Positions 2,523 to 46,640 of a stretch of 64,000 bases of DNA are shown piece after piece. Origin of the DNA: a virus (taxonomy: Duplodnaviria > Heunggongvirae > Uroviricota > Caudoviricetes); IMG/VR virus record IMGVR_UViG_3300032250_000269, positions 25,069 through 89,068 of that record. One strand, written 5' to 3'. Position 1 is the stretch's first letter. Each line of letters starts with the position of its first letter. The position numbers were made by a program, and so were the translations under genes. The notes beneath the pieces are model-generated. The model saw only the letters and a list, made by a program, of their open reading frames with translations, did not search any database and had not been told where the DNA came from.

Positions 2523-2891
2523 ATGGCTAAAGAACTATTATTCTCTATCACTGCCAATGACTGTGATTGGTCTTACACTCGTGGTACTGGTAAAGGCGGT
2601 CAGAAGAAAAACAAGACTTCATCTGCCGTACACTGTATGCATCGCCCTTCAGGCGCACATGGCTATAGTGAAGCTTCTCGCTCTCAGTTGGATAACAAGA
2701 GAGAAGCTTTTCGCAAGATGGCCGAAACAAAAGAATTCCAGAAATGGCATAAGATCGAAGCGGCAAGGCGCATGGGTACACTTGCCACTATCGAAGACAA
2801 TGTTAATCGTGAGATGAATAACATCACGGTTGAAATCAAAGACGAAAAAGGTCGCTGGACTAAAGTGGACAGGGACTATCCTTTAGAATAA
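2523..2891 (+). CDS. RF-1-domain GGQ protein, ArfB-like peptidyl-tRNA hydrolase
   Basis: GTGKGGQKKNKTSSAVH matches ArfB/YaeJ GAGGQHVNKTSTAIH; 122 aa. Confidence 0.7.
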   Translation: MAKELLFSITANDCDWSYTRGTGKGGQKKNKTSSAVHCMHRPSGAHGYSEASRSQLDNKREAFRKMAETKEFQKWHKIEAARRMGTLATIEDNVNREMNNITVEIKDEKGRWTKVDRDYPLE

Positions 2892-2919: not shown

Positions 2920-4728
2920 ATGACAACAGAAACCTATCTAGGTATTACTATCGATAAGAGTAGAGATGAACTTTTTGATGAGCTTGGAATAAAGCGTCTC
3001 AAAGAATCTTATATGAAAGATGATGAGACTTCACCGCAAGAACGTTTTGCCTTTGTATCAAAGGCATTCTCATCAAATCCAGAACACGCACAACGCCTCT
3101 ATGATTATGCCAGTAAACATTGGTTGTCATATGCTACCCCAATTCTATCATTTGGTCGTACAACTAATGGTATGCCAATTAGTTGCTTTCTTAACTATAT
3201 CGAAGATACTGCTGAAGGTCTAGTTAAGAATTATGAAGAAACCAGCCGCTTGTCTATGATGGGCGGTGGTGTTGGTATTGGATTTGGTATTCGTTCCGCT
3301 GGTAGCAAGTCAACTGGTGTTATGCCTCACCTTAAGACATATGATTCGGGTTCCATGGCATATCGTCAGGGCCGCACTCGTCGTGGTTCATATGCAACAT
3401 ATCTTAACATTAGTCACCCTGATATTCAGATGTATCTTGAGATGCGTAAGCCTACAGGTGATCCCAATATTCGTTGTTTAAATCTTCACCATGCTGTAAA
3501 TATTACAGATGACTTCATGGAAATCATCGAACGTTGTATGATTGATCCAGAGGCAAATGATGATTGGCATCTTCGTGATCCTCATACTGGTGAAATTCGT
3601 GATACTGTTTCTGCAAAGCATTTGTGGCAGTCATTACTTGAAATACGTATGCAAACAGGCGAACCCTATATTCATTATATTGATACTTCAAATCGTCTTA
3701 TGAAGGATTTTCAAAAGAAAAAGGGTCTACGTATCAATCAGAGCAATCTTTGCAGTGAAATTATTCTTCCAACAGATAAAGATCGCACTGCTGTTTGTTG
3801 CTTGTCTTCATTGAATTTAGAGTATTCTGATGAGTGGAGTAAGCCTGATATCATCGATCAATTTATTCGTGACGTAGCTGAAATGCTTGACAATGTTCTT
3901 CAATATTTTATTGATAATGCTGATCGTAAGGTTGCTCGTGCTATCTATTCTGCTAGTCAAGAACGTTCTATTGGTATTGGTGCTCTAGGTTTCCATGCTT
4001 ATCTACAGAAGAAGAATGTTGCATTTGAAAGTGCTGTTGCTAAAGCAATCAACATCAAAATTTTCAAATCAATAAATACTGCTCTAGAAAAGGCCAATCT
4101 TGAATTAGGCGCAGAACGTGGTGAAGCACCTGATGCTGTTGGTACTGGTCGTCGTTTCTCAAATTCAATGGCGATTGCTCCTAATGCATCCTCATCATTG
4201 ATTATGGGCAACACTTCTGCTTCTATTGAACCAATGCCAGCAAATGCATATCGTCAAGATACTTTGTCTGGTGCTTATTTGAATAAAAATAAGTATCTCG
4301 ACAAGATTATTCTTAAGGAAGCAGAAAACCAAAAGAATAATTGGTATGATGACGTTTGGTCAAGCATCATTGCAAATGATGGTTCTGTTCAACATTTGAA
4401 TTGGCTTGACGATCATACAAAATCAGTATATAAAACTGCAATGGAAATTGATCAACGTTGGATCATTGAACTTGCTGCTGATAGACAGCAATTTATTGAC
4501 CAAGCACAATCTCTTAATGTATTTTTTAGACCAACTTCTAACATTAAGTACCTACATGCGGTACACTTCCTTGCTTGGAAGCGTGGTCTTAAGACACTTT
4601 ATTACTGCCGCTCAGAAAAGATTGGCAAGGCAGATAAGGTCTCAAAGAAAATTGAACGTGAAGTCATTAAAGAAATCGATATGCAAAGCCTAGTAGACGG
4701 CGAAACATGTATTATGTGTGAAGGTTAA
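2920..4728 (+). CDS. nrdA: ribonucleotide reductase class Ia large subunit
   Basis: 602 aa; NLCSEI active-site motif, C-terminal Cys pair (CIMCEG); sits in a td-frd-nrd block. Confidence 0.9.
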   Translation: MTTETYLGITIDKSRDELFDELGIKRLKESYMKDDETSPQERFAFVSKAFSSNPEHAQRLYDYASKHWLSYATPILSFGRTTNGMPISCFLNYIEDTAEGLVKNYEETSRLSMMGGGVGIGFGIRSAGSKSTGVMPHLKTYDSGSMAYRQGRTRRGSYATYLNISHPDIQMYLEMRKPTGDPNIRCLNLHHAVNITDDFMEIIERCMIDPEANDDWHLRDPHTGEIRDTVSAKHLWQSLLEIRMQTGEPYIHYIDTSNRLMKDFQKKKGLRINQSNLCSEIILPTDKDRTAVCCLSSLNLEYSDEWSKPDIIDQFIRDVAEMLDNVLQYFIDNADRKVARAIYSASQERSIGIGALGFHAYLQKKNVAFESAVAKAINIKIFKSINTALEKANLELGAERGEAPDAVGTGRRFSNSMAIAPNASSSLIMGNTSASIEPMPANAYRQDTLSGAYLNKNKYLDKIILKEAENQKNNWYDDVWSSIIANDGSVQHLNWLDDHTKSVYKTAMEIDQRWIIELAADRQQFIDQAQSLNVFFRPTSNIKYLHAVHFLAWKRGLKTLYYCRSEKIGKADKVSKKIEREVIKEIDMQSLVDGETCIMCEG

Positions 4729-4731
4729 AAA

Positions 4732-4965
4732 ATGAAAGCAATTATTTACTCAAAGCCTGATTGTTCGTTTTGCGTTAAGGCAAAGGATTTTATGTTTGGC
4801 GCAGGAATCGAATATTCTGAGTACACTGTAGGCAAAGATATTATGTGGGAAACAGTACAAGCACGTGCAAAGACTGATGTTACAACTGTTCCGCAAATTT
4901 GGATCGATGGTCAGTATGTCGGGGGATATACTGAACTGGTTAAATGGTATACGGAGAACCTATAA
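4732..4965 (+). CDS. glutaredoxin-like redoxin (RNR electron donor)
   Basis: 77 aa, CSFC active site near N-terminus (KPDCSFCVKAK), lies between nrdA and nrdB. Confidence 0.75.
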   Translation: MKAIIYSKPDCSFCVKAKDFMFGAGIEYSEYTVGKDIMWETVQARAKTDVTTVPQIWIDGQYVGGYTELVKWYTENL

Positions 4966-5966: not shown

Positions 5967-6146
5967 ATGTATATTACGTTAGATAATGATAGATGGGAAG
6001 ACTTAGGTAAAAGATATTTTGTTATAGAGTGGAAACGTAGAACAAATTCGACTGCTGTTGATCTTGTTCTTGAAGACGAGTGTGGAAATATTATTCGTCG
6101 TACAGAACCTCTGTCTTATATTATTGAGGAACGCTCAAATGATTGA
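5967..6146 (+). CDS. hypothetical small protein
   Basis: 59 aa, RBS AAAAGGAA. Confidence 0.35.
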   Translation: MYITLDNDRWEDLGKRYFVIEWKRRTNSTAVDLVLEDECGNIIRRTEPLSYIIEERSND

Positions 6147-6315
6147 GCCTTATGCTACTGTAGATGATGCTGTTGATGACATGGCAAATCAATACTGGAA
6201 AAATATTACTGTTTCCATGATTAATAGAGATATTGATTTGCTGTATGATTCTGCAATTTCGCTAAAAGCACTGGAAGAAGCCAGAATATCCGTTAAAAAT
6301 AAACTAAAAAAATAA
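6139..6315 (+). CDS. hypothetical small protein
   Basis: 58 aa, ATGA overlap. Confidence 0.35.
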   Translation: MIEPYATVDDAVDDMANQYWKNITVSMINRDIDLLYDSAISLKALEEARISVKNKLKK

Positions 6316-6326
6316 AGGAAACTAAA

Positions 6327-6473
6327 ATGAAGTGGTACGATTGTGGAAGCTGCTTATCAGAATTTCGTGTTGTGTCTGAAAGTGATGAACCAATTGAATA
6401 TTGCCCATTTTGTGGTTCTGTGATAGAAGATAAAGAAGACGAAGACGAAGAAGGCTATGATTACAATGAATAA
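6327..6473 (+). CDS. small Zn-ribbon protein (CGSC...CPFCG)
   Basis: 48 aa, two CxxC pairs, acidic tail. Confidence 0.4.
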   Translation: MKWYDCGSCLSEFRVVSESDEPIEYCPFCGSVIEDKEDEDEEGYDYNE

Positions 6474-6487
6474 ATAATACTCCTAAT

Positions 6488-6922
6488 GTGGAGTATTATA
6501 TGTGGTTATACAGAAATGAAGAAATAAATGAACTGCCAGAGGGGTGTGAAGCATTTGTTTACTTGATCACCAACAAAACAAATGGTATGATGTATGTTGG
6601 TAAGAAATTAGCAAAGTTTAAGGTCACAAAAGCACCACTTAAAGGCAAAACAAAGAAAAGACGTTCTACAAAAGAAAGTGATTGGCGAGAATATTGGGGT
6701 TCTAGTGATAGACTGAAATCCGATGTAGAAAAACTTGGAGAAGAAAATTTTACAAGAGAAATCTTGCATTTCTGTCCAAGTCGTGGTATTGCTAGTTATT
6801 TAGAAGCAAGAGAACAATTTGAGCGTAAAGTATTAGAAACCGATGATTACTATAATGGTATTATAAACGTAAGAATTGGTGGATCAAATATTTTAAAAGA
6901 GTACTTAAAAACTATAAGATAA
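6488..6922 (+). CDS. GIY-YIG homing endonuclease-like protein
   Basis: VYLITNKTNGMMYVGKK GIY-YIG motif; free-standing between metabolic genes. Confidence 0.7.
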   Translation: MEYYMWLYRNEEINELPEGCEAFVYLITNKTNGMMYVGKKLAKFKVTKAPLKGKTKKRRSTKESDWREYWGSSDRLKSDVEKLGEENFTREILHFCPSRGIASYLEAREQFERKVLETDDYYNGIINVRIGGSNILKEYLKTIR

Positions 6923-6936
6923 AGGGATTATATGAG

Positions 6937-7323
6937 TTGTCACAGATACTGGAACACAAGCATCTAATTGTACGAGCAGAACTATCCAATCCTCCAAAGT
7001 GCGCTGAAGCTATTCAGGATTGGATGAAAACTCTTGTAGATAAGATTAACATGAAAATTCTCATGGGACCGTATGCCGTATATTCGGATATGGTTGGTAA
7101 TAGAGGACTAACAGCCGTAACAATCATTGAGACGAGTCATTTGGCAATCCACGTCTGGGATGAAGTAGACCCTGCACTTATGCAGCTTGATGTATATACG
7201 TGCTCTACTTTAAACATTGAAGATGTATTTAGTGCGATTGAAGAATTTCAGCCAGTGAAAGTAGAATATAAGTATATCGATAGAGAGAATAGTATATTTG
7301 TTCTTGACAAGAAGATAAATTGA
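6937..7323 (+). CDS. pyruvoyl-dependent decarboxylase of the AdoMetDC (SpeH/SpeD class 1) family
   Basis: HLIVRAEL and GLTAVTIIETSHLAIHVWDE / LDVYTC align to SpeH ESHLTIHTWPE / IDLFTC; apparent TTG start after AAAGGGA. Confidence 0.7.
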   Translation: MSQILEHKHLIVRAELSNPPKCAEAIQDWMKTLVDKINMKILMGPYAVYSDMVGNRGLTAVTIIETSHLAIHVWDEVDPALMQLDVYTCSTLNIEDVFSAIEEFQPVKVEYKYIDRENSIFVLDKKIN

Positions 7324-7328
7324 GTGTA

Positions 7329-7373
7329 TATACCCTGTAAGGTATAAAATAAAAATATACCTTACAGGGTATA
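7329..7373. repeat. perfect 18-bp inverted repeat with 9-nt spacer (operator or hairpin)
   Basis: TATACCCTGTAAGGTATA aaataaaaa TATACCTTACAGGGTATA between the AdoMetDC-like gene and the basic-protein gene. Confidence 0.8.
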
Positions 7374-7409
7374 ACAGTAGTAATGTTAATATGAAAGGTG
7401 ATGTTAATT

Positions 7410-7679
7410 ATGGGTAAGAAGAGAATTCGTAGTAAGAAGGTATCAGGCGGTGAACGCCGTTCTATCGGTCGCTGGGTAATCAACGCTGTTCGTCGTGACA
7501 AGTCAGAATTTGATAAGGCACTAGATAAGCTTGCTGCTTGGAAGGCCGGTAAGAATCCTTGGATTACTATTGCTGGCCCATCGTCTAATCAGCGTTTCAT
7601 TAGAGTACGTGCAAATATTCTCTATGGAAACCCAAAGACTGCTATGGCAAATATCTACGGTAATAAGACTGAAGAATGA
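7410..7679 (+). CDS. small highly basic protein (possible nucleic-acid binding)
   Basis: Lys/Arg-rich 89 aa; downstream of an 18-bp perfect inverted repeat. Confidence 0.5.
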   Translation: MGKKRIRSKKVSGGERRSIGRWVINAVRRDKSEFDKALDKLAAWKAGKNPWITIAGPSSNQRFIRVRANILYGNPKTAMANIYGNKTEE

Positions 7680-7990
7680 TATACATTGTTGATATCGACC
7701 AAACCATTTGTACTACCGAAAAGAAAAATGGTAAATGGGATTATGAAAACTCAACTCCCATATATAATAGAATAGATCATATAAATCAACTATATGATCT
7801 AGGTCACACGATTATCTATTGGACTTCAAGAGGAAACTCTACCGGTATTGATTGGTCAGAGCTTACAAAGAACCAATTAGATGGTTGGGGATGTAAATAT
7901 CATGAAGTTAAACTCGGAAAACCTGAATACGATGTATGGGTTGACGATAAAGCTTATAATGATGAACAATTTTTTGATGAGTATCTATGA
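7676..7990 (+). CDS. HAD-superfamily phosphatase-like protein (DxDxT motif IVDIDQT)
   Basis: N-terminal DIDQT motif; 104 aa; first gene of the sugar cassette. Confidence 0.45.
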   Translation: MIYIVDIDQTICTTEKKNGKWDYENSTPIYNRIDHINQLYDLGHTIIYWTSRGNSTGIDWSELTKNQLDGWGCKYHEVKLGKPEYDVWVDDKAYNDEQFFDEYL

Positions 7991-8946
7991 AAAAAGCGAT
8001 TATTACTGGTGCGGCTGGATTTATTGGCCGTGTTCTTCAGCTAAAACTGAAAGAAGCTGGTTATTATGTTTATGCTATTGATAAAAGACATGATGACGTA
8101 TCGTCTGATGAATATTATCAAATAAACTATTCTTTAATCGCAAACTATGAATACATTAACATTCATGATATCGATGTTATTTTTCATCTTGGCGCAAACA
8201 GCCTACTTGGTCCTTCAGTGACCGATCCCTTGACATATTATCAAAATAATGTTGGTAATATGTCAGAAATGCTAAACAATCTAGTAAAACAAAAGTGGAA
8301 GGGCGTTTTTATATTCGCCTCTTCTGCTGCAACTTATGGTGATCTTAATACTTCATCTCTTCTTGATGAGAATATGGCAGGAAATGCTATAAATCCATAT
8401 GGATCAACTAAAGTTGTTGGTGAGATGATGCTTAAAGAAACGTGTGAAGCATACGGTTTCAAGGCATACTCCATGCGATTTTTTAATGTCGCTGGTTCCT
8501 ATAAAAATGTTGGTCAAGATTTAAATCAACCACACATTTTAACCAAAATGTCCTTATCCTCTCTACAAAACGATACATTTTATATCAACGGAAACACGTA
8601 CAATACATATGATGGTACGTGTGTTCGTGACTATATTCATGTGTCTGATGTTTGTGATGCATTGATGGCCGCAGAAACGTCACTATACACTATGCCAGAA
8701 GGTCACTATGATGCCTTTAATGTTTGTACTGGTAATGCAGTATCAAACAAACAGTTGGCTGAGAAGTTTATTGAAAATTATCCTTTACAATATGACTTCA
8801 AAGAAATTCGACTTGGCGATCCGGGATATTTGATTGGAAATCCAAGTAAGTTATCTTCTATATGGAAGACCGGCCCACAATATCAAATTGATGATATTAT
8901 CAAAACACATTATAACTATGCATTATATGCAAATGAAAGGAAGTAA
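7987..8946 (+). CDS. NAD-dependent sugar epimerase/dehydratase (SDR; HldD-like heptose epimerase candidate)
   Basis: N-terminal AIITGAAGFIGRVL Rossmann motif; 319 aa. Confidence 0.72.
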   Translation: MKKAIITGAAGFIGRVLQLKLKEAGYYVYAIDKRHDDVSSDEYYQINYSLIANYEYINIHDIDVIFHLGANSLLGPSVTDPLTYYQNNVGNMSEMLNNLVKQKWKGVFIFASSAATYGDLNTSSLLDENMAGNAINPYGSTKVVGEMMLKETCEAYGFKAYSMRFFNVAGSYKNVGQDLNQPHILTKMSLSSLQNDTFYINGNTYNTYDGTCVRDYIHVSDVCDALMAAETSLYTMPEGHYDAFNVCTGNAVSNKQLAEKFIENYPLQYDFKEIRLGDPGYLIGNPSKLSSIWKTGPQYQIDDIIKTHYNYALYANERK

Positions 8947-8949
8947 ATT

Positions 8950-9948
8950 ATGAGTGTTATTTGGGAACGTAATGAAATGAATCAGAATTCTCAAGGTGGT
9001 ACTGAGAGAATGATGGAAGGCGTTCTTTCTCGTCTTAAACCAGAATATCATGAAAAGTTTCAGATTATTCCTTCACGTGTTCGTGAACTATATGATGATC
9101 GTATTCGTATATATTGGCTACATGATTTGCCATGGGACAATGAAACAAATCATCTAGCAGATGAAAATAGTCGTGATCGTTTTCATAAGATTGTTTATTG
9201 CGGTAATTGGCAAATGAATATGTATCAAAATATGCTTAATATTCCTCAAAACCAAAAGAGTTGTGTTATTGATACTGCCATCACTCCATTTGATGAGATA
9301 CAAAAGGGCGATCCAAAAGAAGAAATTCGCCTCATCTATACAAGCACTCCACAACGTGGTCTTAGTATTTTGGTCCCCGTTTTTGAAAAGCTGTGTGAAA
9401 AGTATGATAACATTGTACTTGATGTTTTTTCTAGTTATAGAATATATGGTTGGGAACAAGCAGATTATCAGTTTGAAAGTCTTTTTCAAAGATGCCGTGA
9501 TCATCCTAAGATTAATTATTATGGTTTCGCTCCAAATGATGTTGTACGTAAACATATGGCTAAGGCACATATTTTTGCATATCCTTCAATTTGGCCAGAG
9601 TGTAATAGTCAGTCTTTGATTGAAGCTATGTCTGCTGGTGCGATATGCGTCCATCCTAACTATGCTGGTCTTAGTGACACATCAGGCTCTATAACAATTC
9701 AATATCATTGGGATAATGATTTAAATACCCATGCAAATATTTTTTATTCTGTTCTTGACGGAACGATTCAAAAGATGTATAATGCTGATATGATACCATA
9801 TCTAAATTTCCAGAAAAATTATGCCGATTATCGTTATAATTGGGATAAGATTGGTTTTCAATGGAATTCTCTGTGTGAGAATCTACTAGCTCAGTATGAA
9901 GGTAAGAGCTTTGCTGTTTCCAAGCCAAGCTTTATCTACAGAACATAA
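8950..9948 (+). CDS. glycosyltransferase, GT-B fold (GT4-like)
   Basis: C-terminal QSLIEAMSAGAICV resembles the GT1/GT4 E-x7-E sugar-donor motif. Confidence 0.55.
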   Translation: MSVIWERNEMNQNSQGGTERMMEGVLSRLKPEYHEKFQIIPSRVRELYDDRIRIYWLHDLPWDNETNHLADENSRDRFHKIVYCGNWQMNMYQNMLNIPQNQKSCVIDTAITPFDEIQKGDPKEEIRLIYTSTPQRGLSILVPVFEKLCEKYDNIVLDVFSSYRIYGWEQADYQFESLFQRCRDHPKINYYGFAPNDVVRKHMAKAHIFAYPSIWPECNSQSLIEAMSAGAICVHPNYAGLSDTSGSITIQYHWDNDLNTHANIFYSVLDGTIQKMYNADMIPYLNFQKNYADYRYNWDKIGFQWNSLCENLLAQYEGKSFAVSKPSFIYRT

Positions 9949-9959
9949 AGAGACATTTT

Positions 9960-10901
9960 ATGATACTTGCAAAAGCACCACTTCGTGTTAGTTTTTTTGG
10001 TGGGGGTAGTGATATCCCCACCCATTTTTTAAAGTGGGGCGGTTCTACTATCTCCATGGCTATTGACAAATACGTCTATGTTGTTGTTATGCCAACTCCT
10101 CATAATTATATAAAGGTATCATATTCAAAGCAAGAATGTGTCACAAATGTTGATGATTTGCAGAATGATATTATAAAAAACACATTGAAGTTTTTTGGTA
10201 TTAAATCTAATATAGAAATAAACACATTTGCTGATATCCCAACCGTAGGAACAGGTCTTGCCGGTTCTTCTGCATTTACTTGTGCTTTAGTAAAGGCATT
10301 AAGTGCGTTTGTTGGTAATGAATATCATGATTCATATGATATAGCAAAAATTGCATGTCATATTGAGATTAATATGTGCGGTTGGAATATTGGTATGCAA
10401 GATCAATATGCTGCTGCTTTTGGCGGAATGAACTATATTCAATATTCTGATAAAAACATTCTTGTTCATAAAATGAATGTCAATCAAATTGATGAATATA
10501 TGTTGTTGATTCCAACCAATATTCAAAGACATTCTTCAAAAGTCCTTGACAATGTTAATTTTTCAGATAAAGCTTCTTGTATATGGAGTCTATCTGATAT
10601 AGCTGATGATGAATATAAAAATATTCCTTCTTTATGTCAATATGGAAAATTGTTAGAGAAATCTTGGGACTTGAAAAAGCAGATGGATTCTGGTATATCC
10701 AATCCAGAGATTGATGCCATGTATGATAAGTGCATGAACCACGGTGCTGTTGGTGCCAAATTGCTTGGCGCTGGTGGTGGTGGATATATGCTAGCTCTAA
10801 CAGAAGATCGTGCTAAAATCAAAGAAGCATTTTCTGATCGTGTGTGTCTAAATGTTTCTGTTTCACATGAAGGAACCAAAATTGTATATAGAGAGCCTTG
10901 A
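9960..10901 (+). CDS. hddA: GHMP sugar kinase, D-glycero-D-manno-heptose 7-phosphate kinase-like (HddA family)
   Basis: APLRVSFFGGGSDIP N-terminus and GxGSSAA, GAGGGG GHMP motifs. Confidence 0.72.
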   Translation: MILAKAPLRVSFFGGGSDIPTHFLKWGGSTISMAIDKYVYVVVMPTPHNYIKVSYSKQECVTNVDDLQNDIIKNTLKFFGIKSNIEINTFADIPTVGTGLAGSSAFTCALVKALSAFVGNEYHDSYDIAKIACHIEINMCGWNIGMQDQYAAAFGGMNYIQYSDKNILVHKMNVNQIDEYMLLIPTNIQRHSSKVLDNVNFSDKASCIWSLSDIADDEYKNIPSLCQYGKLLEKSWDLKKQMDSGISNPEIDAMYDKCMNHGAVGAKLLGAGGGGYMLALTEDRAKIKEAFSDRVCLNVSVSHEGTKIVYREP

Positions 10902-11448
10902 ACTAATTCGTAACACGCATACTGCAACAGTTCAGTATGGTTTTGAATCTATTAACCAAAAGCAATTTCAAGAAGCGGCAGATTGCATTGTCAATGCCAT
11001 TTATAATGGAAAGACAATCTTTACGGTTGGTAATGGCGCTTCTGCCGCAATCGCACAGCATTGGGCATGTGACTATACCAAAGGGTGCCGTCCTTATGGA
11101 AATCCTCGTGTTATCTCATTATCAACCAACATTCCGTTGATGACTGCGATTTCCAATGATATTTCATACGATGAAGTATATGCTTATCAGGTAAATGCTC
11201 TTGGTGATTGGGAAGATGTACTCATCACAATTTCTTCTAGCGGAAACTCACCAAACGTGGTAAGAGCCATTGAAGCAGCAAAGAAAAGAAACATGAAGAC
11301 CATCGCATTGACAGGTTTTCAGGGCGGCAAGTCAAGAGAACTTGCTGACTACCCCATTCATGTTGATGTTCAAGAGTATGAGGCTGCTGAAGATGTTCAT
11401 CAGGCGATTATGCATATGATTGCCAAATATATTAGGGTTGTTCTCTAA
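10852..11448 (+). CDS. gmhA: phosphoheptose (sedoheptulose-7-P) isomerase, SIS domain
   Basis: TVGNGASAAIAQHWACDY and ISSSGNS SIS motifs; start uncertain (10852 or 10867, overlaps hddA end). Confidence 0.8.
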   Translation: MFLFHMKEPKLYIESLELIRNTHTATVQYGFESINQKQFQEAADCIVNAIYNGKTIFTVGNGASAAIAQHWACDYTKGCRPYGNPRVISLSTNIPLMTAISNDISYDEVYAYQVNALGDWEDVLITISSSGNSPNVVRAIEAAKKRNMKTIALTGFQGGKSRELADYPIHVDVQEYEAAEDVHQAIMHMIAKYIRVVL

Positions 11449-36191: not shown

Positions 36192-38372
36192 ATGTTAACT
36201 TTTATCAACTATATGTTAATGATCGAAGCCAAGGTAGATGATTTGGTGACGAAGCACCCTGAACACGCAGAAGCAATTCGTGCATACAATGCTGCTGATC
36301 CTACACCTACCAAGAAGTTTTTGCCTTGGTTAGTAAAGCAACATATTGCTGGTAATGTTACGCCTAATGATGCTAGACTTGGTTCTACACTACAAAATTT
36401 TGATAAAGTAAAACACCAACTTGATAACAAAGATCATAGCGGTTATCATTATAATGATCTTGCTAATAAGGTTGGTGATCGTGTCAAAGCAAAGTTAGAA
36501 GCAGACGCAAAAAAGAATGCTGTAGAGACTATCCATAAAGAACCAAGCGGTATAACAGCACAACATATCAAAACCAAAGAAGCTTCACAAGACCTTTATG
36601 GTGGCGGCGCTGAACGTGGTGGTAAGAAAGGATGTGCTCGTGGTACTTCATGGTGTGTTTCTGCACGTTCTGAAGGAAACTTGTTTGATCGTTATGGTCA
36701 TATGTATACCATACACGATCCAAACGATGATAATGCACCTTATGCCGTACATCCATTCAATCGTGGCGGTATCATAACGTCAAGACATAATGATGGTGAT
36801 AAATCATACAAACTAGTATTAGAACAAAAGCCACATTTAAAAAATGCTGTTAATGCTATTATTGATCATTCCGCAAAACATATTGATGAAATGATGACAG
36901 GCGAAGAAGCTCGTAATGCTATTAATCATCCAAATATAACACCAGAGCATATCGATAAGGCATTAAATCATCCTTATGATAATGGTGTTCGTGAAAAGGC
37001 CGCTGCTCATCCGAATGCAAGTCCTGCAAACATTGAAAAGGCTTTGAAGGCTAATCAGCCAGCCACTGTGCAAGAAGCAGCAATTAGAAACCCAAATGCT
37101 ACTCATGCACAAATTCAAAACGCACTAGAAAATGGAGACAGTGGATTAATCATTTCTGCAATCAGTAATCCAAATCTATCATCAAGTCATATTGATCATG
37201 TTTTGAAAAATGGTTCTAAGCTTCAGAAAATTAAGGCGATGCAACATCCAAATGTAACATCAGAGCATATCACCAAAGCACTAAATGATCCAGAAGCGTC
37301 TGTCCGTTATGCTGCTATAAATCATCCAAATGCAACCGCAGAACACATTACCAAAGCATTAGATGATCCAGATGATAATGTGCGTTATGAAATTATGAGG
37401 TCTGGACACAAAAATATGACACCAGAGCATATCACCAAAGCACTAGATGATACTGATGCTGGTGTGCGTAGGGTTGCTTTGAAAAACTCATTAGTTACAC
37501 CAGAACATATCACCAAAGCACTAGATGATACTGATGCTGGTGTGCGTAGGATTGCTATAGAACATCATAAAATAATACCAGAACATATCACCAAAGCACT
37601 AGATGATACTGATGCTGGTGTGCGTAGGATTGCTATAGAACATCATAAAATAATACCAGATCATATTACCAAAGCATTGAAAAGTGCAGACGCTGATGTT
37701 CGTGAGATTGCTATAAAAAATCGTAATGCAACACCAGAGCATATCACACAAGCATTAGATGATCCTGACACATATGTTCGTGAATCTGCTATAAAAAATC
37801 GTAATGCAACACCAGATCACATCACCAAAGCACTAAATGACAAAAATGTTAATGTACGTGCTGTCGCTGCGTATCGCTCAAATGCAACAGAAGATCATAT
37901 TACTAAAGCATTAAATGATGAACACCCACAAGTTCGTAGGGCTGCTATAGAAAATCGAAATGCAACACCAAAGCATATTAATAAGGCATTAGATGATAAA
38001 AACTTTAATGTTCGTTTTGCTGCTATTGATAATCGAAATGCAACACCAGATCACATCACCAAAGCACTAAATGATAAAGATAATAATGTTCGTCGTGCTG
38101 CTATAAGACATCCAAATGCAAACACCGAGCATATTACCAAAGCATTGGATGATTCTAACAACTATGTTCGTGAAGCTGCTTTAGAACATCCAAATGTAAC
38201 ACCAGATCATATCACCAAAGCATTGGACGATCCTGATGAATATGTTCGTGGAATTGCTATAGAACATCCTAAAGCAACCGCAGAACACATTAAAAAAGCA
38301 TTAAATGATCCAGATTATGATGTTAGATTAACCGCACAGGTCAAAGCTGATGCTATACGTCCAAGACAATAA
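36192..38372 (+). CDS. large protein: novel N-terminal domain plus about 19 HEAT-like (PBS-lyase type) repeats
   Basis: Tandem 31-aa units HITKALDDxDxxVRxxAIxHPNATPE; N-terminus MLTFINYMLMIEAK. Confidence 0.6.
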   Translation: MLTFINYMLMIEAKVDDLVTKHPEHAEAIRAYNAADPTPTKKFLPWLVKQHIAGNVTPNDARLGSTLQNFDKVKHQLDNKDHSGYHYNDLANKVGDRVKAKLEADAKKNAVETIHKEPSGITAQHIKTKEASQDLYGGGAERGGKKGCARGTSWCVSARSEGNLFDRYGHMYTIHDPNDDNAPYAVHPFNRGGIITSRHNDGDKSYKLVLEQKPHLKNAVNAIIDHSAKHIDEMMTGEEARNAINHPNITPEHIDKALNHPYDNGVREKAAAHPNASPANIEKALKANQPATVQEAAIRNPNATHAQIQNALENGDSGLIISAISNPNLSSSHIDHVLKNGSKLQKIKAMQHPNVTSEHITKALNDPEASVRYAAINHPNATAEHITKALDDPDDNVRYEIMRSGHKNMTPEHITKALDDTDAGVRRVALKNSLVTPEHITKALDDTDAGVRRIAIEHHKIIPEHITKALDDTDAGVRRIAIEHHKIIPDHITKALKSADADVREIAIKNRNATPEHITQALDDPDTYVRESAIKNRNATPDHITKALNDKNVNVRAVAAYRSNATEDHITKALNDEHPQVRRAAIENRNATPKHINKALDDKNFNVRFAAIDNRNATPDHITKALNDKDNNVRRAAIRHPNANTEHITKALDDSNNYVREAALEHPNVTPDHITKALDDPDEYVRGIAIEHPKATAEHIKKALNDPDYDVRLTAQVKADAIRPRQ
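37438..37716 (+). repeat. three near-identical tandem 93-bp DNA repeats inside the HEAT-repeat gene
   Basis: Repeated unit ...CCAGAACATATCACCAAAGCACTAGATGATACTGATGCTGGTGTGCGTAGGATTGCTATAGAACATCATAAAATAATA. Confidence 0.8.
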
Positions 38373-38390
38373 ACAAGTAAGGTTTAATAA

Positions 38391-40028
38391 ATGTTAACTT
38401 TTATCAACTATATGTTAATGATCGAAGCCAAGGTAGATGACTTGGCAGCAAAGCACCCTGAACATGCAGAAGCGATTCGTGCTTATCATGCTGCTGATCC
38501 ATCACCAACCAAGAAGTTCCTACCTTGGTTAGTAAAGCAACATATTGCTGGTAATGTAACTCCTAATGATGTAAGACTTGGCTCTACTTTACAACACTTC
38601 GACAAAGTAAAGCATCAACTTGATAACAAAGATCATAGTGGTTATCATTATAATGATCTTGCTAATGCTGTTGGTGATCGTGTCAAAGCTAAACTTGAAG
38701 CTGATGCAAAAAAGAATTCTGTAGAAACCATTCACAAAGAACCAAGCGGTATAACAGCACAACAAATCAAGACCAAAGAAGCATCACAAGACCTTTATGG
38801 AGGTGGAGAAGCTCGTGGTGGTAAGAAAGGTTGTGCACGTGGTACAAACTGGTGCGTTTCTGCTCGTCCCTCTTCTCATGGTGATGGAAATCTTTTTGGA
38901 CATTATGGTCATATGTATACTATACATGATTCAAATGATGAAAATGCACCATATGCTGTGCATCCTTTTTATTATGGTGGTCCGACAATCACTTCTAGAC
39001 ATAATGATGGAGACAAACCACATACACAAGTATTGGCACAGAAACCACACTTAAAAAAAGCTGTGAATGCTATTCTAAATCATTCTGCAAAACATATCGA
39101 TTCATTAATTAATTCAGATGATGATGATGAAGTTTATCATGCCATTAGCCATCCACGTGCGACACCAGAGCATATTGATAAAGCATTAAGTCATACCGAT
39201 TCTGATGTTCGTAATACTGCTGCTAGTCATCCCAATGCATCTCCTGCAAATATTCAAAAGGCTATGAAAGGCAGTGCTTCCATGCAAGAAGAAGCAATCA
39301 AAAATCCAAATGCTACTCATGCTCAAATTCAAAATGCATTGGAGAATGGTCATGGTGGTTTAGTTCGTGCTGCTATTGATAATCCAAATCTATCATCAAG
39401 CCATATTCATCATATTTTGGATCATGGTTCTGAAATACACCGTATCGTAGCTTTAAATCATGCTAATGCAACGGAAGATCATATTACTAAGGCATTAGAT
39501 GATGTTAATACAAGTGTTCGTTTTGCTGCTTTAAACCATCCAAAAGTCACACCTGATCATATTACTAAAGCATTGAGTAATGATGATCCAGAGGTTCGTG
39601 CTGCTGCTATACGTCATCAAAATGCAACACCAGATCATATCACAAAGGCATTGAATGACGATGATCCAGATGTTCGTGCTGCTGCTATACGTCATCAAAA
39701 TGCTACACCTGATCATATTACTAAAGCATTAGATGATCCCATTCGTGTAGTTCGTCTATCTGCTATAAATCATCCAAATGCAACACCAGAGCATATTACT
39801 AAAGCACTAAATGATTCTCACCCATATGTTCGTGCTGCTGCTATAAATCATCCAAATGCAACACCAGATCATATCACTAAAGCACTAAATGATCCTGATT
39901 TTCAAGTTCGCAAAGCCGCTATTAAAAACCCAAATCGTACACCAGAGCATATTGCTAAAGCATTGAATGACGATGATGGAATAGTTCGTGATGCTGCTGA
40001 CGTTGCTCGTATCCAACAAAATCGATGA
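38391..40028 (+). CDS. paralog of the preceding HEAT-repeat protein
   Basis: Near-identical N-terminal domain, divergent repeat number. Confidence 0.6.
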   Translation: MLTFINYMLMIEAKVDDLAAKHPEHAEAIRAYHAADPSPTKKFLPWLVKQHIAGNVTPNDVRLGSTLQHFDKVKHQLDNKDHSGYHYNDLANAVGDRVKAKLEADAKKNSVETIHKEPSGITAQQIKTKEASQDLYGGGEARGGKKGCARGTNWCVSARPSSHGDGNLFGHYGHMYTIHDSNDENAPYAVHPFYYGGPTITSRHNDGDKPHTQVLAQKPHLKKAVNAILNHSAKHIDSLINSDDDDEVYHAISHPRATPEHIDKALSHTDSDVRNTAASHPNASPANIQKAMKGSASMQEEAIKNPNATHAQIQNALENGHGGLVRAAIDNPNLSSSHIHHILDHGSEIHRIVALNHANATEDHITKALDDVNTSVRFAALNHPKVTPDHITKALSNDDPEVRAAAIRHQNATPDHITKALNDDDPDVRAAAIRHQNATPDHITKALDDPIRVVRLSAINHPNATPEHITKALNDSHPYVRAAAINHPNATPDHITKALNDPDFQVRKAAIKNPNRTPEHIAKALNDDDGIVRDAADVARIQQNR

Positions 40029-40684: not shown

Positions 40685-40755
40685 ACAATCCCTATATACA
40701 AGAAATCACTCAGATAGACTGTGTGATATATTTTAACACAAAGGAGTTTTGTGGA

Positions 40756-41856
40756 ATGGACAAAGAATTTGATCTACTAGTTTTCATTGGGCGTTTTCAG
40801 CCCTTTCATACTCAACATAAACACGTAATTGATATTGCTCTTCAGAAAGCTAATAAGGTTCTTATTCTTATTGGTTCTTCTGGGAAAGCACGTACTATTC
40901 GCAATCCGTTCACTTTTGATGAACGTTGCGATATGATTCACAAATCATTTCTTGACTATGATCTTGATGCATCAAATGATGTAGATGGATGTGTAGCAAC
41001 TTCTCGTCTTATCATCAAGCCTCTCTATGACAAGACTTACAATGATGCTGCTTGGATCAAGCAAGTACAGGATATTGTCAAGGATACTACACTTCGTATT
41101 ATGAATCCAAGTGGTTTCATGGCCTCTGGATTGAATGATGCTAAGGTTGGTTTGATTGGTGCCAGTAAGGACAACACTAGCTACTATCTGAAGCTTTTTC
41201 CTCAATGGGGTTCTGTCAATGTACCTATCAATACGATGATGCATTCGACAGCAATTCGTGATGGTTTCTTTTCTGGTAAGATGAAGCGTCATGAATTGAT
41301 CACAAATGAACTTACTACACCTGTTGCAAATTTCATGTTTAATGAGTTTGCTCATACTGATGAGTTTTCTCAGCTTCAGCGTGAACTCGATCATGTGAAA
41401 AAGTATAAGGAAGCATGGAAAGCTGCACCTTATGCCGTAAAGCATATCACAGTAGATGCTATTGTTGAACAGAGCGGTCATATTCTGGTTGTAAAGCGTA
41501 GAAGCGAACCGGGTAAGGGTCTATGGGCTTTGCCGGGTGGTCATCTAGAAGAATTTGAAACTCTTGAAGATGGTGTTATTCGTGAGCTACGTGAAGAAAC
41601 CAAGATTAAGGTTCCTGATCCTGTTCTTCGTGGTTCGATTCAAAAGACGCATATGTTTGATGATCCACATCGTTCAAATATTGGTCGTGTAATCACTTTT
41701 GCTGCACACATTAAGCTTAATGATGATACCAAGCTTCCAAAGGTAAAGGGTGCTGATGATGCAGAAAAGGCGATATGGTTGCCAATCACTGATGTGAAGG
41801 AAGATATGCTTTTTGATGATCATTATCACATCATTAGTTATTTCTTGGGTCTTTGA
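40756..41856 (+). CDS. natV: bifunctional NMN adenylyltransferase / Nudix hydrolase (NadM-Nudix, KVP40 NatV-like)
   Basis: GRFQPFHTQH (HxGH) nucleotidyltransferase motif; Nudix box GGHLEEFETLEDGVIRELREETKI. Confidence 0.8.
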   Translation: MDKEFDLLVFIGRFQPFHTQHKHVIDIALQKANKVLILIGSSGKARTIRNPFTFDERCDMIHKSFLDYDLDASNDVDGCVATSRLIIKPLYDKTYNDAAWIKQVQDIVKDTTLRIMNPSGFMASGLNDAKVGLIGASKDNTSYYLKLFPQWGSVNVPINTMMHSTAIRDGFFSGKMKRHELITNELTTPVANFMFNEFAHTDEFSQLQRELDHVKKYKEAWKAAPYAVKHITVDAIVEQSGHILVVKRRSEPGKGLWALPGGHLEEFETLEDGVIRELREETKIKVPDPVLRGSIQKTHMFDDPHRSNIGRVITFAAHIKLNDDTKLPKVKGADDAEKAIWLPITDVKEDMLFDDHYHIISYFLGL

Positions 41857-41945
41857 ATAAAGACTTGACAAATTTTTGATTTATCGTAAACGTAAAAATG
41901 GCAAGGGATAGACTCAAGCCAAAAAACAAATAGAGGAGTTCTATT

Positions 41946-43316
41946 ATGAAAAATATTATTCTAAATTCAGATAGTTACAAGTACAGTCAGTTCAATCAAT
42001 ACCCGGAAGGGACTGAGTACATCTACAGCTACATCGAAAGTCGTGGTGGTAAGTATGATGAGACTGTGTTCTTTGGTCTTCAGGCATTCATCAAGGAATA
42101 CTTGACAAAGCCTATCGATTATTATGATATTGATGAAGCAGCCGCCATTATTGGTGCACATGGAGAACCTTTCAACTATAAAGGTTGGGAATACATCGTT
42201 CGTGAACATGGTGGTTATCTTCCTGTGAAGATCACGGCTGTTCCTGAAGGTCTTGTTATTCCCACTCGTAATGTGCTGGCAACTATTGTTAACACTGATC
42301 CTAAGTGTTACTGGTTGACTAGCTTCCTAGAAACTGCACTGCTTCGTGCTATTTGGTATCCTACCACAGTGGCTACTAACAGTCGTGAAATTAAGAAGGT
42401 TATTCTTGATGCTCTTGAGCGTACCGGTACTCCTGAAGATATTGCTTTTAAGCTTCATGACTTTGGCGCTCGTGGAGTCAGTAGTCTCGAAAGTGCAGGA
42501 ATTGGTGGTGCTGCCCACTTGGTCAACTTCATGGGTACTGACACTGTTGAGGCTTTGCTTTATGCTCGTCGTTATTATGGTGCTGATATGGCCGGGTTCT
42601 CAGTTCCTGCAATGGAGCACTCAACTGTAACTAGCTGGGGTCGTGAACGTGAGGTTGATTCATACCGCAATATGGTAAAGAAGAATGGCAAACCCGGTGG
42701 TATTGTATCTGCTGTTAGTGATAGCTATGATATCTTCAATGCATGTAAGCTTTGGGGTACTGAGCTAAAGCAGGATGTTCTTGATTCAGGTGCAACTCTT
42801 GTAGTTCGTCCTGATTCTGGTAAGCCTGATGAAGTTGTTCTTGGTTGTCTTGTGGTGCTTGATAAGTACTTTGGTCACACTATCAATAACAAGGGATACA
42901 AGGTATTGAATAACGTTCGTGTCCTTCAAGGTGATGGTATTACGATTGATTCAATCAAGGAAATCCTTGCTCTTATTATTGCTAATGGCTATAGTGCAGA
43001 TAATCTTGTATTCGGTCAAGGTGGTGCATTGCTTCAGATTGTCAATCGTGATGATCAGAAGTTTGCTATGAAGTGTTCTGCTGCTTTTGTTAATGGTAAG
43101 TGGGTTGATGTATTCAAAGACCCTATTACTGACAAGGGTAAGCAGAGTAAGAAGGGTAAGCTCAAGTTGGTCAAAGATGTAGATCATTATATTACTATCA
43201 ACAGCCACGATAAAATGTTCGAAATCCTTCACGATGAGATGGAAGTTGTATTCGAAAATGGTGTACTTCTTCGTGACATGAGCTTTGATGAAGTTAGAAA
43301 AAATGCAAATATGTAA
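41946..43316 (+). CDS. nadV: nicotinamide phosphoribosyltransferase (NadV/Nampt)
   Basis: N-terminus NSDSYKYSQ and size typical of Nampt; adjacent to NMNAT. Confidence 0.85.
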   Translation: MKNIILNSDSYKYSQFNQYPEGTEYIYSYIESRGGKYDETVFFGLQAFIKEYLTKPIDYYDIDEAAAIIGAHGEPFNYKGWEYIVREHGGYLPVKITAVPEGLVIPTRNVLATIVNTDPKCYWLTSFLETALLRAIWYPTTVATNSREIKKVILDALERTGTPEDIAFKLHDFGARGVSSLESAGIGGAAHLVNFMGTDTVEALLYARRYYGADMAGFSVPAMEHSTVTSWGREREVDSYRNMVKKNGKPGGIVSAVSDSYDIFNACKLWGTELKQDVLDSGATLVVRPDSGKPDEVVLGCLVVLDKYFGHTINNKGYKVLNNVRVLQGDGITIDSIKEILALIIANGYSADNLVFGQGGALLQIVNRDDQKFAMKCSAAFVNGKWVDVFKDPITDKGKQSKKGKLKLVKDVDHYITINSHDKMFEILHDEMEVVFENGVLLRDMSFDEVRKNANM

Positions 43317-43915: not shown

Positions 43916-43992
43916 GGGGGTATAGCCCAACAGGCAGAGGCAGGAGACTTAAAATCTCTTCAGTGCGAGTTCGAATCTCGCTATCCCTACCA
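43916..43992 (+). tRNA. tRNA, class I length; anticodon loop CTTAAAA gives apparent UAA anticodon (Leu-type) with A73
   Basis: 7-bp acceptor GGGGGTA/TATCCCT, T-arm GCGAG-TTCGAAT-CTCGC, CCA encoded. Confidence 0.6.
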
Positions 43993-44093
43993 AAGTTTAA
44001 GTTTTTCCGTTGGGTTCGATTCCCAAGGTATATAGATGGTCTTCGTCAAGGTTCGACTCCTTGATATATCGAATAAGCATGGTGGTGGATTAT

Positions 44094-44167
44094 GCCCCTA
44101 TAGTTAAATGGTATAACAGTTGCCTTGTAAGCATCAATCCACAGTTCGATTCTGTGTGGGGGCACCA
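44094..44167 (+). tRNA. tRNA-Thr (UGU) probable
   Basis: Acceptor GCCCCTA/TGGGGGC, T-loop TTCGATT, loop CTTGTAA. Confidence 0.6.
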
Positions 44168-44190
44168 GAGTAAAAGATATTTAAAGTTTT

Positions 44191-44266
44191 GGGGATATAG
44201 CTCAGTTGGGAGAGCAGTAGCTTTGCAAGCTTCAGGTCAGGAGTTCGAACCTCCTTATCTCCACCA
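44191..44266 (+). tRNA. tRNA-Ala (UGC)
   Basis: G3:U70 wobble pair, loop TTTGCAA, T-arm GGAGTTCGAACCTCC. Confidence 0.7.
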
Positions 44267-44337
44267 AGTTAGAGGTTGACATTCAATAAGCACGGAGGTA
44301 CTGTAATTGAATGTTGGCTTCGACATAATAAATTGTA

Positions 44338-44411
44338 GCGGGAGGGAGGTCTGGTATCTCACTGGTTTCATAAGCCATTAGAAGCGGTTCGAATCCGTCT
44401 CTCCGCAACCA
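44338..44411 (+). tRNA. tRNA-like (CAU loop?), structure uncertain
   Basis: T-arm GCGGTTCGAATCCGT and CCA end, but acceptor pairing is poor. Confidence 0.3.
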
Positions 44412-44513
44412 TTTATTGCTCTTTGACATTGTTAGAAAAAAAGTAATTTTACTTTAAAGATCAATTGCGGCTTCGGTCTATATATTGACGCCATTTATGG
44501 TAGTTATTTTACG

Positions 44514-44589
44514 TCTGGGAGAGGGCAAATGGCGAGCCGCTGCGTTTGGGGCGCAGAGACAGTGATTTCGAATATCACCTTCCAGACCA
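44514..44589 (+). tRNA. tRNA-Pro (UGG) probable
   Basis: Acceptor TCTGGGA/TTCCAGA, anticodon arm CTGCG-TTTGGGG-CGCAG, T-loop TTCGAAT. Confidence 0.6.
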
Positions 44590-44659
44590 TTTAGTTTTCT
44601 TGCTTTCTTTAAAAAGCAAGTGGTGGATGCTCGTATCCTAGTGATACGGCCCTAAATAT

Positions 44660-44735
44660 GGTGTCGGTAGTTCAGTGGTAGAACGGAGGCTTGTGGTGCC
44701 TCATGTCGTGGGTTCGATCCCCATCCTTCACCCCA
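44660..44735 (+). tRNA. tRNA-His (GUG) with G-1
   Basis: Anticodon arm GAGGC-TTGTGGT-GCCTC, C73 then CCA; 2 acceptor mismatches. Confidence 0.6.
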
Positions 44736-44736
44736 T

Positions 44737-44814
44737 GTCGGTGTAGCTTAGCCCGGTCTAAAGCAACGGTCTCCAAAACCGTGATCGTGAGTTCGAATCT
44801 CACCACCTTCGCCA
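44737..44814 (+). tRNA. tRNA-Trp (CCA)
   Basis: Anticodon arm ACGGT-CTCCAAA-ACCGT; T-arm GTGAG-TTCGAAT-CTCAC; 1 nt after tRNA-His. Confidence 0.6.
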
Positions 44815-44834
44815 TTTTAAACAATAGGTGATTT

Positions 44835-45272
44835 ATGATTGAAGAAGCACGGAAAGCAATATTGGCATCAAGTCAAAATTCTTCTGTTTATATCGGTGCT
44901 GATAGTATCCGTTATAAGAAAAATGGTAAGTGGTTTGCGAAGTATTCAACAGTGATTGTCCTTCACATGGATTCTAAGCATGGTTGTAGGTTGTTCAGTA
45001 AAAGCATTGATTTGCCAGACTATGGAAACTTAAAGCAACGCTTACTTACAGAAGTTGGATATGCTATCGAAGCAGCTACAGAGATTATTGATGCAGTTGG
45101 TGATCGTCATTTGGAAATCCACATTGACGTTAATCCAAATCCTAATCATAAGTCATCTGTTGCAATCAAGGAAGCCTTGGGTTATGTTAAGGGTTCTCTT
45201 GGTATAGATGCTATTCCAAAGCCACATGGTTGGGCTGCTACACATGCTGCTGATCATATAGCTAATAACTAA
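44835..45272 (+). CDS. hypothetical protein (possibly RNase-H-like fold)
   Basis: 145 aa. Confidence 0.45.
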   Translation: MIEEARKAILASSQNSSVYIGADSIRYKKNGKWFAKYSTVIVLHMDSKHGCRLFSKSIDLPDYGNLKQRLLTEVGYAIEAATEIIDAVGDRHLEIHIDVNPNPNHKSSVAIKEALGYVKGSLGIDAIPKPHGWAATHAADHIANN

Positions 45273-45280
45273 TTTTTTTG

Positions 45281-45335
45281 TTGACACTCCATTCCTTATG
45301 ATTTATAACCCATCTCATAAGGAATGGAGATTGAA
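45281..45335 (+). promoter_or_regulatory. promoter embedded in a hairpin
   Basis: TTGACA then 15-bp stem CTCCATTCCTTATGA...TCATAAGGAATGGAG with TATAAC in the loop. Confidence 0.5.
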
Positions 45336-45713: not shown

Positions 45714-45714
45714 C

Positions 45715-46064: not shown

Positions 46065-46069
46065 TTAGT

Positions 46070-46625: not shown

Positions 46626-46640
46626 TTATAAAGGCTTCAA
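46604..46640 (+). promoter_or_regulatory. consensus promoter reading into a tRNA/ncRNA stretch
   Basis: TTGACA TAGTGATGCGAATCACT TATAAA GGCTTCAACAAA. Confidence 0.55.

Follow-up and report, generated by a model that had tools for sequence, protein, structure and literature searches.

The nearest assayed relative of the protein considered here is gp22 of the pelagiphage HTVC201P, an annotated S-adenosylmethionine decarboxylase (AdoMetDC) that was found to lack AdoMetDC activity and that restored no spermidine in an E. coli delta-speD strain (Li et al., PNAS 2023, PMC9992855). The enzyme decarboxylates L-arginine, with a Km of 0.87 mM and a kcat/Km of 290 M-1 s-1, and is inactive on ornithine and lysine (PMC9992855). 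In the published phylogeny HTVC201P stands alongside the clade of pyruvoyl ornithine decarboxylases (SpeDC), which may reflect a separate origin of arginine decarboxylase activity (JBC 2023, PMC10407285). We analyzed a homologous gene in a 64,000-nucleotide stretch (the window) of the IMG/VR virus record IMGVR_UViG_3300032250_000269. The virus is a large marine myovirus of T4-like type, and the gene encodes a 128-residue proenzyme (Table 1). We consider it probable, with moderate confidence, that this protein is a pyruvoyl L-arginine decarboxylase of the SpeDA type, which would boost the supply of polyamine precursors during infection. The motif that marks this group of enzymes and their shift of substrate are already in the literature; what is mildly new is the presence of the type in large myoviruses, its wide distribution in cellular marine bacteria and its repeated association with homing endonucleases.

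A megablast search with positions 6400-7700 gave no match among phage genomes; with no close cultured relative found in this way, the identification rests on protein-level searches. The protein matched Pfam PF02675 (AdoMet_dc) at 55.6 bits (cut-off 25; E 7.7e-15) over profile positions 17-106 of 107, and PHROG 3125 at 54.5 bits (E 2.3e-14). An AlphaFold2 model built from 42 sequences had a mean predicted local distance difference test (pLDDT) of 86.2 and a predicted template modeling (pTM) score of 0.79. Its closest folds in the PDB were the AdoMetDCs of T. maritima and Aquifex (1tlu, 1vr7 and 2iii; probability 1.00, TM-score 0.65-0.72), and the predicted structure is the four-layer alpha/beta fold of class 1b AdoMetDCs. 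Identity in the fold alignment was about 20%; no solved structure closer by sequence was found. Ser67 (AGT, 7135-7137), His72 (CAC, 7150-7152) and Cys89 (TGC, 7201-7203) align with S63, H68 and C83 of the T. maritima enzyme, the residues required for its processing and catalysis (PMC10407285), and are invariant in alignments of homologues. Around the reactive serine lie Glu65 (GAG, 7129-7131), Thr66 (ACG, 7132-7134), His68 (CAT, 7138-7140) and Trp74-Asp75-Glu76 (TGG-GAT-GAA, 7156-7164). The T. maritima enzyme cleaves between Glu62 and Ser63, and this site was the alignment reference for the cut predicted between Thr66 and Ser67. The first-pass annotation, made from the sequence without database searches, had recognized a pyruvoyl proenzyme of the AdoMetDC family. 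The domain match, the fold and the aligned Ser, His and Cys bear this out, and the peptides that it quoted (HLIVRAEL, GLTAVTIIETSHLAIHVWDE and LDVYTC) all occur exactly in the translated reading frame. The ratio of nonsynonymous to synonymous substitution (dN/dS) between the window gene and its relatives was 0.05-0.23, and 66 positions were invariant when the window protein was aligned with 41 close homologues (42 sequences in all). The dN/dS values indicate that the gene is maintained by selection; judged by its sequence, it is intact, functional and kept under purifying selection.

The same annotation had drawn attention to the threonine that stands in place of the usual glutamate before the pyruvoyl-forming serine. 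The Thr66-Ser67 pair is confirmed, but it is the norm of a subfamily and no oddity of this gene: ETSH was present in 120 of 120 close homologues (78-100% identity, among the matches listed). An exhaustive search of 1.84 billion representatives of 50%-identity clusters returned 702 sequences at E <= 1e-3 and 401 at E <= 1e-10, and residues were counted in the best 150 cluster representatives. Threonine occupied the -1 position in 144 of these and the reactive serine was kept in 148, as was the histidine at +5; tryptophan at +7 (146), aspartate at +8 (119) and the cysteine (144) completed the pattern. Alignments of this breadth indicate that Thr-Ser marks a large coherent branch of the AdoMetDC family and is not an anomaly of the window gene. 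A neighbor-joining tree placed the window clade within the Thr-Ser family, together with HTVC201P; we used this coarse placement alone, as the tree does not resolve branching within the family and its support after re-rooting is unreliable. An 80%-identical variant of the myovirus clade is listed in 255 assembly-index blocks, and the clade is abundant in marine metagenomes.

Among cultured phages, the matches were to SAR11 podoviruses alone (47-57% identity), all of them annotated as AdoMetDC. HTVC201P gp22 (AXH71538; L001, 3004-3372) is the nearest assayed enzyme, 51.3% identical over 115 amino acids (BLASTP, E 1e-37; tblastn, E 4e-33). Common to both proteins is the core I-E-T-S-H...H-x-W-D-E...P-A-x-x-Q-L-D-V-Y-T-C-S; HTVC201P carries the same signature, ETSHIAFHSWDE, and its core AIETSHIAFHSWDEDEPAMVQLDVYTCS matches the window core IIETSHLAIHVWDEVDPALMQLDVYTCS. 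Because the window protein is a member of the Thr-Ser/H-x-W-D-E subfamily typified by HTVC201P, its most likely substrate is L-arginine. The first-pass annotation had cautioned that the substrate might not be AdoMet and called it open. The caution was right, although the question is less open than implied, since the nearest assayed enzyme is an L-arginine decarboxylase. Arginine as the substrate, the self-cleavage and the physiological role are our inferences. In the mechanism that we propose, the proenzyme would cut itself between Thr66 and Ser67 by serinolysis, and the alpha chain so generated would begin with a pyruvoyl cofactor, derived from Ser67 and covalently bound, with His72 and Cys89 helping both processing and catalysis. 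The processed enzyme would then convert L-arginine to agmatine, as SpeDA-type enzymes do, and host enzymes could use the agmatine to make putrescine and (homo)spermidine, or alternatively N1-aminopropylagmatine. The increased supply of polyamines would serve phage replication.

We scanned GTDB species genomes with a 14-sequence alignment to assess the distribution of the subfamily in cells. Fifty loci encoded proteins 45-60% identical to the window protein with an IIETSH...HxWDE...QLDVY[TS]C core; one further locus (L015), on a short contig of a metagenome-assembled genome (MAG), was 80% identical. The sources included a complete Pseudothioglobus chromosome, many Thioglobus and Pseudothioglobus single-cell genomes, other Gamma- and Alphaproteobacteria, a Phycisphaeraceae chromosome and MAGs labeled Deltaproteobacteria. 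Neighborhoods were cellular and conserved in the Pseudothioglobus and Thioglobus loci (L023-L033 and L062, including the complete chromosome NZ_CP179200, whose copy falls within 874305-886652) and in L038-L053; the chromosomal homologues in genomes with these two labels were 51-57% identical to the phage protein. In five Thioglobus/Pseudothioglobus-type loci a nitrilase-like CN-hydrolase lies directly downstream of the homologue. Its candidacy as the N-carbamoylputrescine amidase of an arginine route was rejected: it scored 221 bits against the nitrilase-like model TIGR04048, and 56.8 bits against aguB, for which the cut-off is 410.25. We found no mention of cellular homologues of the HTVC201P type in the two papers of Li et al.

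Five of the bacterial loci (L016-L020, 58-60% identity) are the most similar to the window protein among loci with conserved cellular neighbors. They come from marine MAGs labeled Deltaproteobacteria or unclassified bacteria, in which the flanking genes are ordinary cellular ones. In each, the Thr-Ser gene stands first in a tight cluster and is followed by a canonical SpeD (ESH...WPE) and then by SpeE (Table 1 gives L019). As the canonical SpeD already fills the role of AdoMetDC in these clusters, the Thr-Ser gene is not expected to be the AdoMetDC there. Two SpeD paralogues in one cluster was the signature by which Li et al. found neofunctionalized copies, and the second copy (SpeD2) of V. 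chlorellavorus proved to be an arginine decarboxylase (PMC10407285). By their gene content, the L016-L020 clusters argue that the Thr-Ser type is not an AdoMetDC; they do not separate arginine from ornithine.

These clusters bear directly on the possibility that the window protein is a true, divergent AdoMetDC which, like the SpeD of cyanophages, provides a spermidine synthase of the host with decarboxylated AdoMet. The protein has the fold and the catalytic residues of AdoMetDC, and its homologues carry that name in public records. In six gammaproteobacterial loci (L054-L061, 45-46% identity), moreover, the Thr-Ser gene and a SpeE-like gene form a divergent pair with no further SpeD inside 6 kb, the pattern expected of a true AdoMetDC. 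However, the protein scored 48.1 bits against the AdoMetDC equivalog model TIGR03330, below its cut-off of 75.65, and the assayed arginine decarboxylase of HTVC201P also fell short (38.4 bits). BLASTP against the assayed AdoMetDCs of S-PM2 (SpeD) and T. maritima gave 33-35 bits. The class 1b AdoMetDCs that we compared (T. maritima, Aquifex, S-PM2 and L019) have a Glu-Ser dipeptide where the window protein has Thr66-Ser67, and Asp75 replaces the proline of HxWPE, a residue that is reported to be fully conserved among bona fide AdoMetDCs but not among the arginine decarboxylases (PMC10407285). The weight of that proline is tempered by the assayed AdoMetDC of phiN3, which also lacks it and whose activity survives without the E-S-H/W-P-E motif; BLASTP gave no match between the window protein and this enzyme. 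The only assayed proteins of the Thr-Ser type, HTVC201P and the related marine phage protein BAR31446, did not complement delta-speD, and in L019 the Thr-Ser gene shares its cluster with a canonical SpeD that scores 133.8 bits. On these grounds we consider AdoMetDC activity quite unlikely. No polyamine-related gene was seen among the approximately 30 window open reading frames (ORFs) scanned, nor did a spermidine synthase appear there or in the precomputed Pfam matches of genes called on the parent contig up to 10 kb to each side; these stretches cover part of a phage genome of roughly 190 kb.

An L-ornithine decarboxylase of the SpeDC type, or a dual ornithine/arginine enzyme, would make putrescine directly. 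Threonine before the reactive serine is one of the four SpeDC-diagnostic residues (Gln, Thr, Phe and Tyr; Fig. 8, PMC10407285), and the assayed ornithine decarboxylase domains of D. phosphitoxidans and Omnitrophica have Q-L-I-E-T-S at a site confirmed by an S229A mutant (Fig. S5, PMC10407285). The phage ornithine decarboxylases were discovered via similarity to HTVC201P, and one of them, UCP01, uses both substrates. The bacterial Thr-Ser gene/SpeD/SpeE cluster would also be the simplest route to spermidine if its first enzyme gave putrescine. A query of the phage collection with the ornithine decarboxylase domain returned only the Sinorhizobium phiM12/phiN3 group and no assayed phage ornithine decarboxylase, and the motif was therefore taken from the published supplementary alignment. 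By our own reading of Fig. S5, the four residues map to Gln at -5, Thr at -1, Phe at +6 and Tyr before the Asp. The window protein carries T, T, V and Q there and so, on this mapping, retains one of the four, the threonine. Compared with the assayed domain, it has Thr and not Gln at -5, Val-Trp and not Phe-Ala after the catalytic His, and Gln and not Tyr before the Asp. None of the 150 nearest representatives had Gln at -5 or the G-H-F form, whereas the tryptophan was kept in 146. BLASTP found no match to the Omnitrophica ornithine decarboxylase domain at E <= 100; the domain sequence came from optically recognized text and may contain errors. We regard an ornithine-using enzyme as unlikely, though not negligible.

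Several of these observations, together with others, weigh against the assignment of arginine as the substrate. The nearest assayed enzyme is 51% identical and lies outside the myovirus clade (78-100% identity), and such identity is modest for the transfer of a substrate within a family whose specificity has switched several times. The published tree puts HTVC201P in or next to the SpeDC clade, Thr at -1 is listed as a residue diagnostic of ornithine decarboxylases (PMC10407285), and UCP01, a phage enzyme of the SpeDC clade, acts on ornithine and arginine. The L016-L020 cluster fits an ornithine as well as an arginine decarboxylase, the divergent pairs of L054-L061 look like those of an AdoMetDC, and the phage enzyme of phiN3, which lacks the canonical motif, is nonetheless a true AdoMetDC. 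No gene for processing agmatine was found among the roughly 30 ORFs scanned in the 64-kb window. It is conceivable, and in our judgment rather unlikely, that the specificity of the myovirus clade has moved away from that of the podovirus arginine decarboxylase, toward ornithine and arginine or another amine-bearing amino acid, while the gene spread between unrelated phages and to or from marine Proteobacteria as the cargo or target of GIY-YIG endonucleases. A different substrate altogether, or a non-catalytic or regulatory (prozyme-like) paralogue, appears very improbable. The substrate range of the subfamily has been sampled by a single kinetically characterized enzyme, HTVC201P, from which the myovirus clade differs at about half of its positions. 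However, the invariance of the processing and catalytic residues under purifying selection argues against a dead paralogue, and the informative bacterial neighbors are polyamine genes. Arginine decarboxylation remains the reading that we favor.

The first-pass annotation had placed translation initiation at a TTG codon, and this placement holds: TTG is the first start-type codon in frame, and the starts of relatives align at the same codon, which is ATG in L006-8, GTG in L003-5 and TTG in L009-11. Since relatives use ATG, GTG or TTG at this position, the TTG start is well supported, and these alignments make TTG one of several interchangeable start codons in the gene family. The N-terminus M-x-x-ILEHKHLI is common to 120 homologues. 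The next in-frame ATG encodes Met30, and initiation there would cut away the HKHLIVRAE strand, which is invariant in the family. The AGGGA of the putative Shine-Dalgarno element is also present upstream of the start in L009 (TTG) and L006 (ATG). The identical 128-residue protein has been called independently on further public contigs, the longest of 192.7 kb and another of 56.6 kb. An out-of-frame ATG at 6932 opens an 11-codon ORF (6932-6967) before the TTG start. Relatives with non-ATG starts have an out-of-frame ATG 5-6 nt upstream of the start; the 11-codon ORF is found in L009 as well, and in L003 an out-of-frame ATG-AAG-TGA (3995-4003) overlaps the GTG start of the decarboxylase gene. Such an upstream ATG could act through translational coupling or competition.

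The gene was described at first as lying between a homing endonuclease and a heptose cassette. Both neighbors are in place, a SegE endonuclease upstream and a sugar cassette downstream, with an ORF for 93 residues between the decarboxylase gene and the cassette. No cassette gene reaches its NCBIfam equivalog cut-off. Of these genes, the glycosyltransferase alone is present in the nearest relatives (L003 and L009), which lack the heptose-type genes; the other cassette genes are therefore best seen as an accessory insertion unrelated to the decarboxylase. The closest relatives also have the SegE gene immediately upstream. In a second myovirus lineage (L006-L008) the decarboxylase gene has another genomic position, with a NUMOD3 ORF (4386-4898) after it, and in-frame C-terminal SegE/GIY-YIG fusions occur in five of 10 long family representatives (P0138, P0160, P0197, P0216 and P0221), none of the 10 having a polyamine enzyme domain fused to the decarboxylase. 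This repeated association suggests either endonuclease-driven spread or that the gene is itself a homing target. The inverted repeat just past the decarboxylase stop codon is unique in the window, and its RNA fold has a free energy of -29 kcal/mol (z -7.6). L003 has kept the stem through two compensatory double substitutions; L009 has no hairpin. As no T-run follows the stem, a role as an intrinsic terminator is not supported, and the hairpin may be a candidate transcript-end or stability element for the decarboxylase gene.

The remaining genes of the window include those for thymidylate synthase, dihydrofolate reductase (DHFR), ribonucleotide reductase (RNR) alpha and beta, RNase H, a T4-type RNA ligase and a UvrD-like helicase. 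On the parent contig a glutaredoxin gene was called between RNR alpha and beta, and PhoH and MazG matches were recorded for genes inside the window range. About 1 kb separates RNR beta from the decarboxylase gene downstream of it; in the SAR11 podoviruses the decarboxylase homologue abuts RNR alpha. The closest relatives of RNR alpha came from a fecal phage fragment that lacks annotation (61%), from an Alcaligenes phage (59%) and from SAR11 podoviruses (55%), and those of RNase H from Stenotrophomonas phage DLP6, Methylophilales phage Melnitz and the Sinorhizobium phiM12 group; no host could be assigned from these relatives of the two proteins. The 603-residue ORF that precedes a pair of HEAT-repeat proteins had no Pfam match.

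Table 1. Coordinates of the decarboxylase gene, its parts and other features of the window, and of the gene cluster of L019 (positions of L019 refer to that locus)
Feature	Position	Strand	Details
Decarboxylase coding sequence	6937..7323	+	128-aa proenzyme; ORF list and sequence; stop TGA 7321-7323
TTG start codon	6937..6939	+	First ATG/GTG/TTG past the preceding in-frame stop
Shine-Dalgarno-like AAGGGA	6922..6927	+	9 nt 5' of the TTG; putative function, from sequence
Predicted beta chain	6937..7134	+	Residues 1-66, C-terminal Thr66, calculated 7427.7 Da; putative cleavage, from the T. maritima alignment
Predicted alpha chain	7135..7320	+	Residues 67-128, ~7256 Da; Ser67 to N-terminal pyruvoyl, with His72 and Cys89; predicted from alignment
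Core signature E-T-S-H-L-A-I-H-V-W-D-E	7129..7164	+	Thr66 for canonical Glu, Asp75 for Pro of H-x-W-P-E
Inverted repeat	7329..7373	+	Perfect 18-bp stem, 9-nt loop; 5 nt past the decarboxylase stop
SegE-type GIY-YIG endonuclease	6488-6922		114.5 bits; immediately upstream of the decarboxylase
93-aa ORF	7398-7679		Unknown function; between the decarboxylase gene and the sugar cassette
Sugar cassette	7676-11448		Small phosphatase-like, SDR epimerase, GT4 glycosyltransferase, HddA-like GHMP kinase, GmhA-like SIS isomerase
122-aa ORF	2523-2891		ArfB- or PrfH-like, with an RF-1/peptidyl-tRNA hydrolase domain; located between the genes for DHFR and RNR alpha
Two adjacent large HEAT-repeat proteins	36192-40028		726 and 545 aa; preceded by the 603-aa ORF
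NAD salvage pair	40723-43316		Cytidylyltransferase-like (NMNAT-type) and NUDIX fusion; nicotinamide phosphoribosyltransferase (NAMPT)
28 tRNA genes	43916-62200	+	Scattered groups, including three tRNA-Met(CAT) and four tRNA-Lys
SegE/NUMOD3-type homing endonuclease	52060-52707		Second in the window; in the tRNA region
L019 Thr-Ser decarboxylase	6004-6426
L019 canonical SpeD	about 6455-6910		AESHISVHTWPE; TIGR03330 133.8 bits
L019 SpeE	about 6900-7754		NF002010 392.6 bits

Public phage records and recent surveys of metabolic genes in marine phages still label homologues of this protein "S-adenosylmethionine decarboxylase". If that label is wrong, the effect to be expected of the gene is a supply of agmatine or putrescine, and not of an aminopropyl donor. 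The window gene adds large T4-like marine myoviruses to the small SAR11 podoviruses as carriers of the HTVC201P-type enzyme. A side result may matter more: marine Proteobacteria, the Thioglobus/Pseudothioglobus group among them, commonly encode the Thr-Ser type in their cellular genomes. The bacterial loci point to the reservoir that Li et al. proposed, and did not identify, for the HTVC201P lineage, and several of their enzymes could readily be assayed to establish the specificity of the group as a whole.

The comparison with known systems can be drawn at four levels. With the canonical class 1b AdoMetDCs (T. maritima TM0655, 1tlu/1vr7; S-PM2 SpeD) the window protein shares the fold, with a TM-score of 0.66-0.72 to 1tlu/1vr7, the positions of Ser, His and Cys, small size and, by prediction, processing into alpha and beta chains; unlike them, it has Thr-Ser for Glu-Ser, H-V-W-D-E for H-T-W-P-E and a 2-residue insertion before the Asp. 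The SpeDC enzymes (LBP, UCP01-04 and the C-terminal domains of the D. phosphitoxidans and Omnitrophica SpeD-SpeDC fusions) resemble it in their Glu-Thr-Ser site, but their domains read Q-L-I-E-T-S-L-x-S-G-H-F-A-N, without the Trp, where the window protein reads T-I-I-E-T-S-H-L-A-I-H-V-W-D-E. Vampirovibrio chlorellavorus has SpeD1 (AdoMetDC) and SpeD2 (arginine decarboxylase) clustered with speE and speB, and this arrangement of two SpeD copies with SpeE recurs in L016-L020, where the copy that departs from the canonical form has the Thr-Ser pattern of the window protein; the V. chlorellavorus arginine decarboxylase belongs to a different, independently arisen SpeDA lineage in the published tree (PMC10407285).

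HTVC201P differs from the window system in coming from a 41-kb podovirus and not a large T4-like myovirus, in having Gln at -5 and Phe at +4 where the window protein has Thr and Ile, and in that the window gene starts at TTG and is flanked by a SegE homing endonuclease. The likenesses extend beyond the shared core: both proteins carry the 2-residue insertion that is missing from canonical SpeD and the same N-terminal LEHKH-I-I-RA strand, they are of the same length class (122 residues in HTVC201P, 128 in the window), both score below the TIGR03330 cut-off, and both genes lie near the ribonucleotide reductase genes of a marine phage. Because the Thr-Ser rule and arginine-decarboxylating tested members of this group were already known, we conclude that the window gene is an ordinary new member of the described HTVC201P-type branch of neofunctionalized SpeD homologues.

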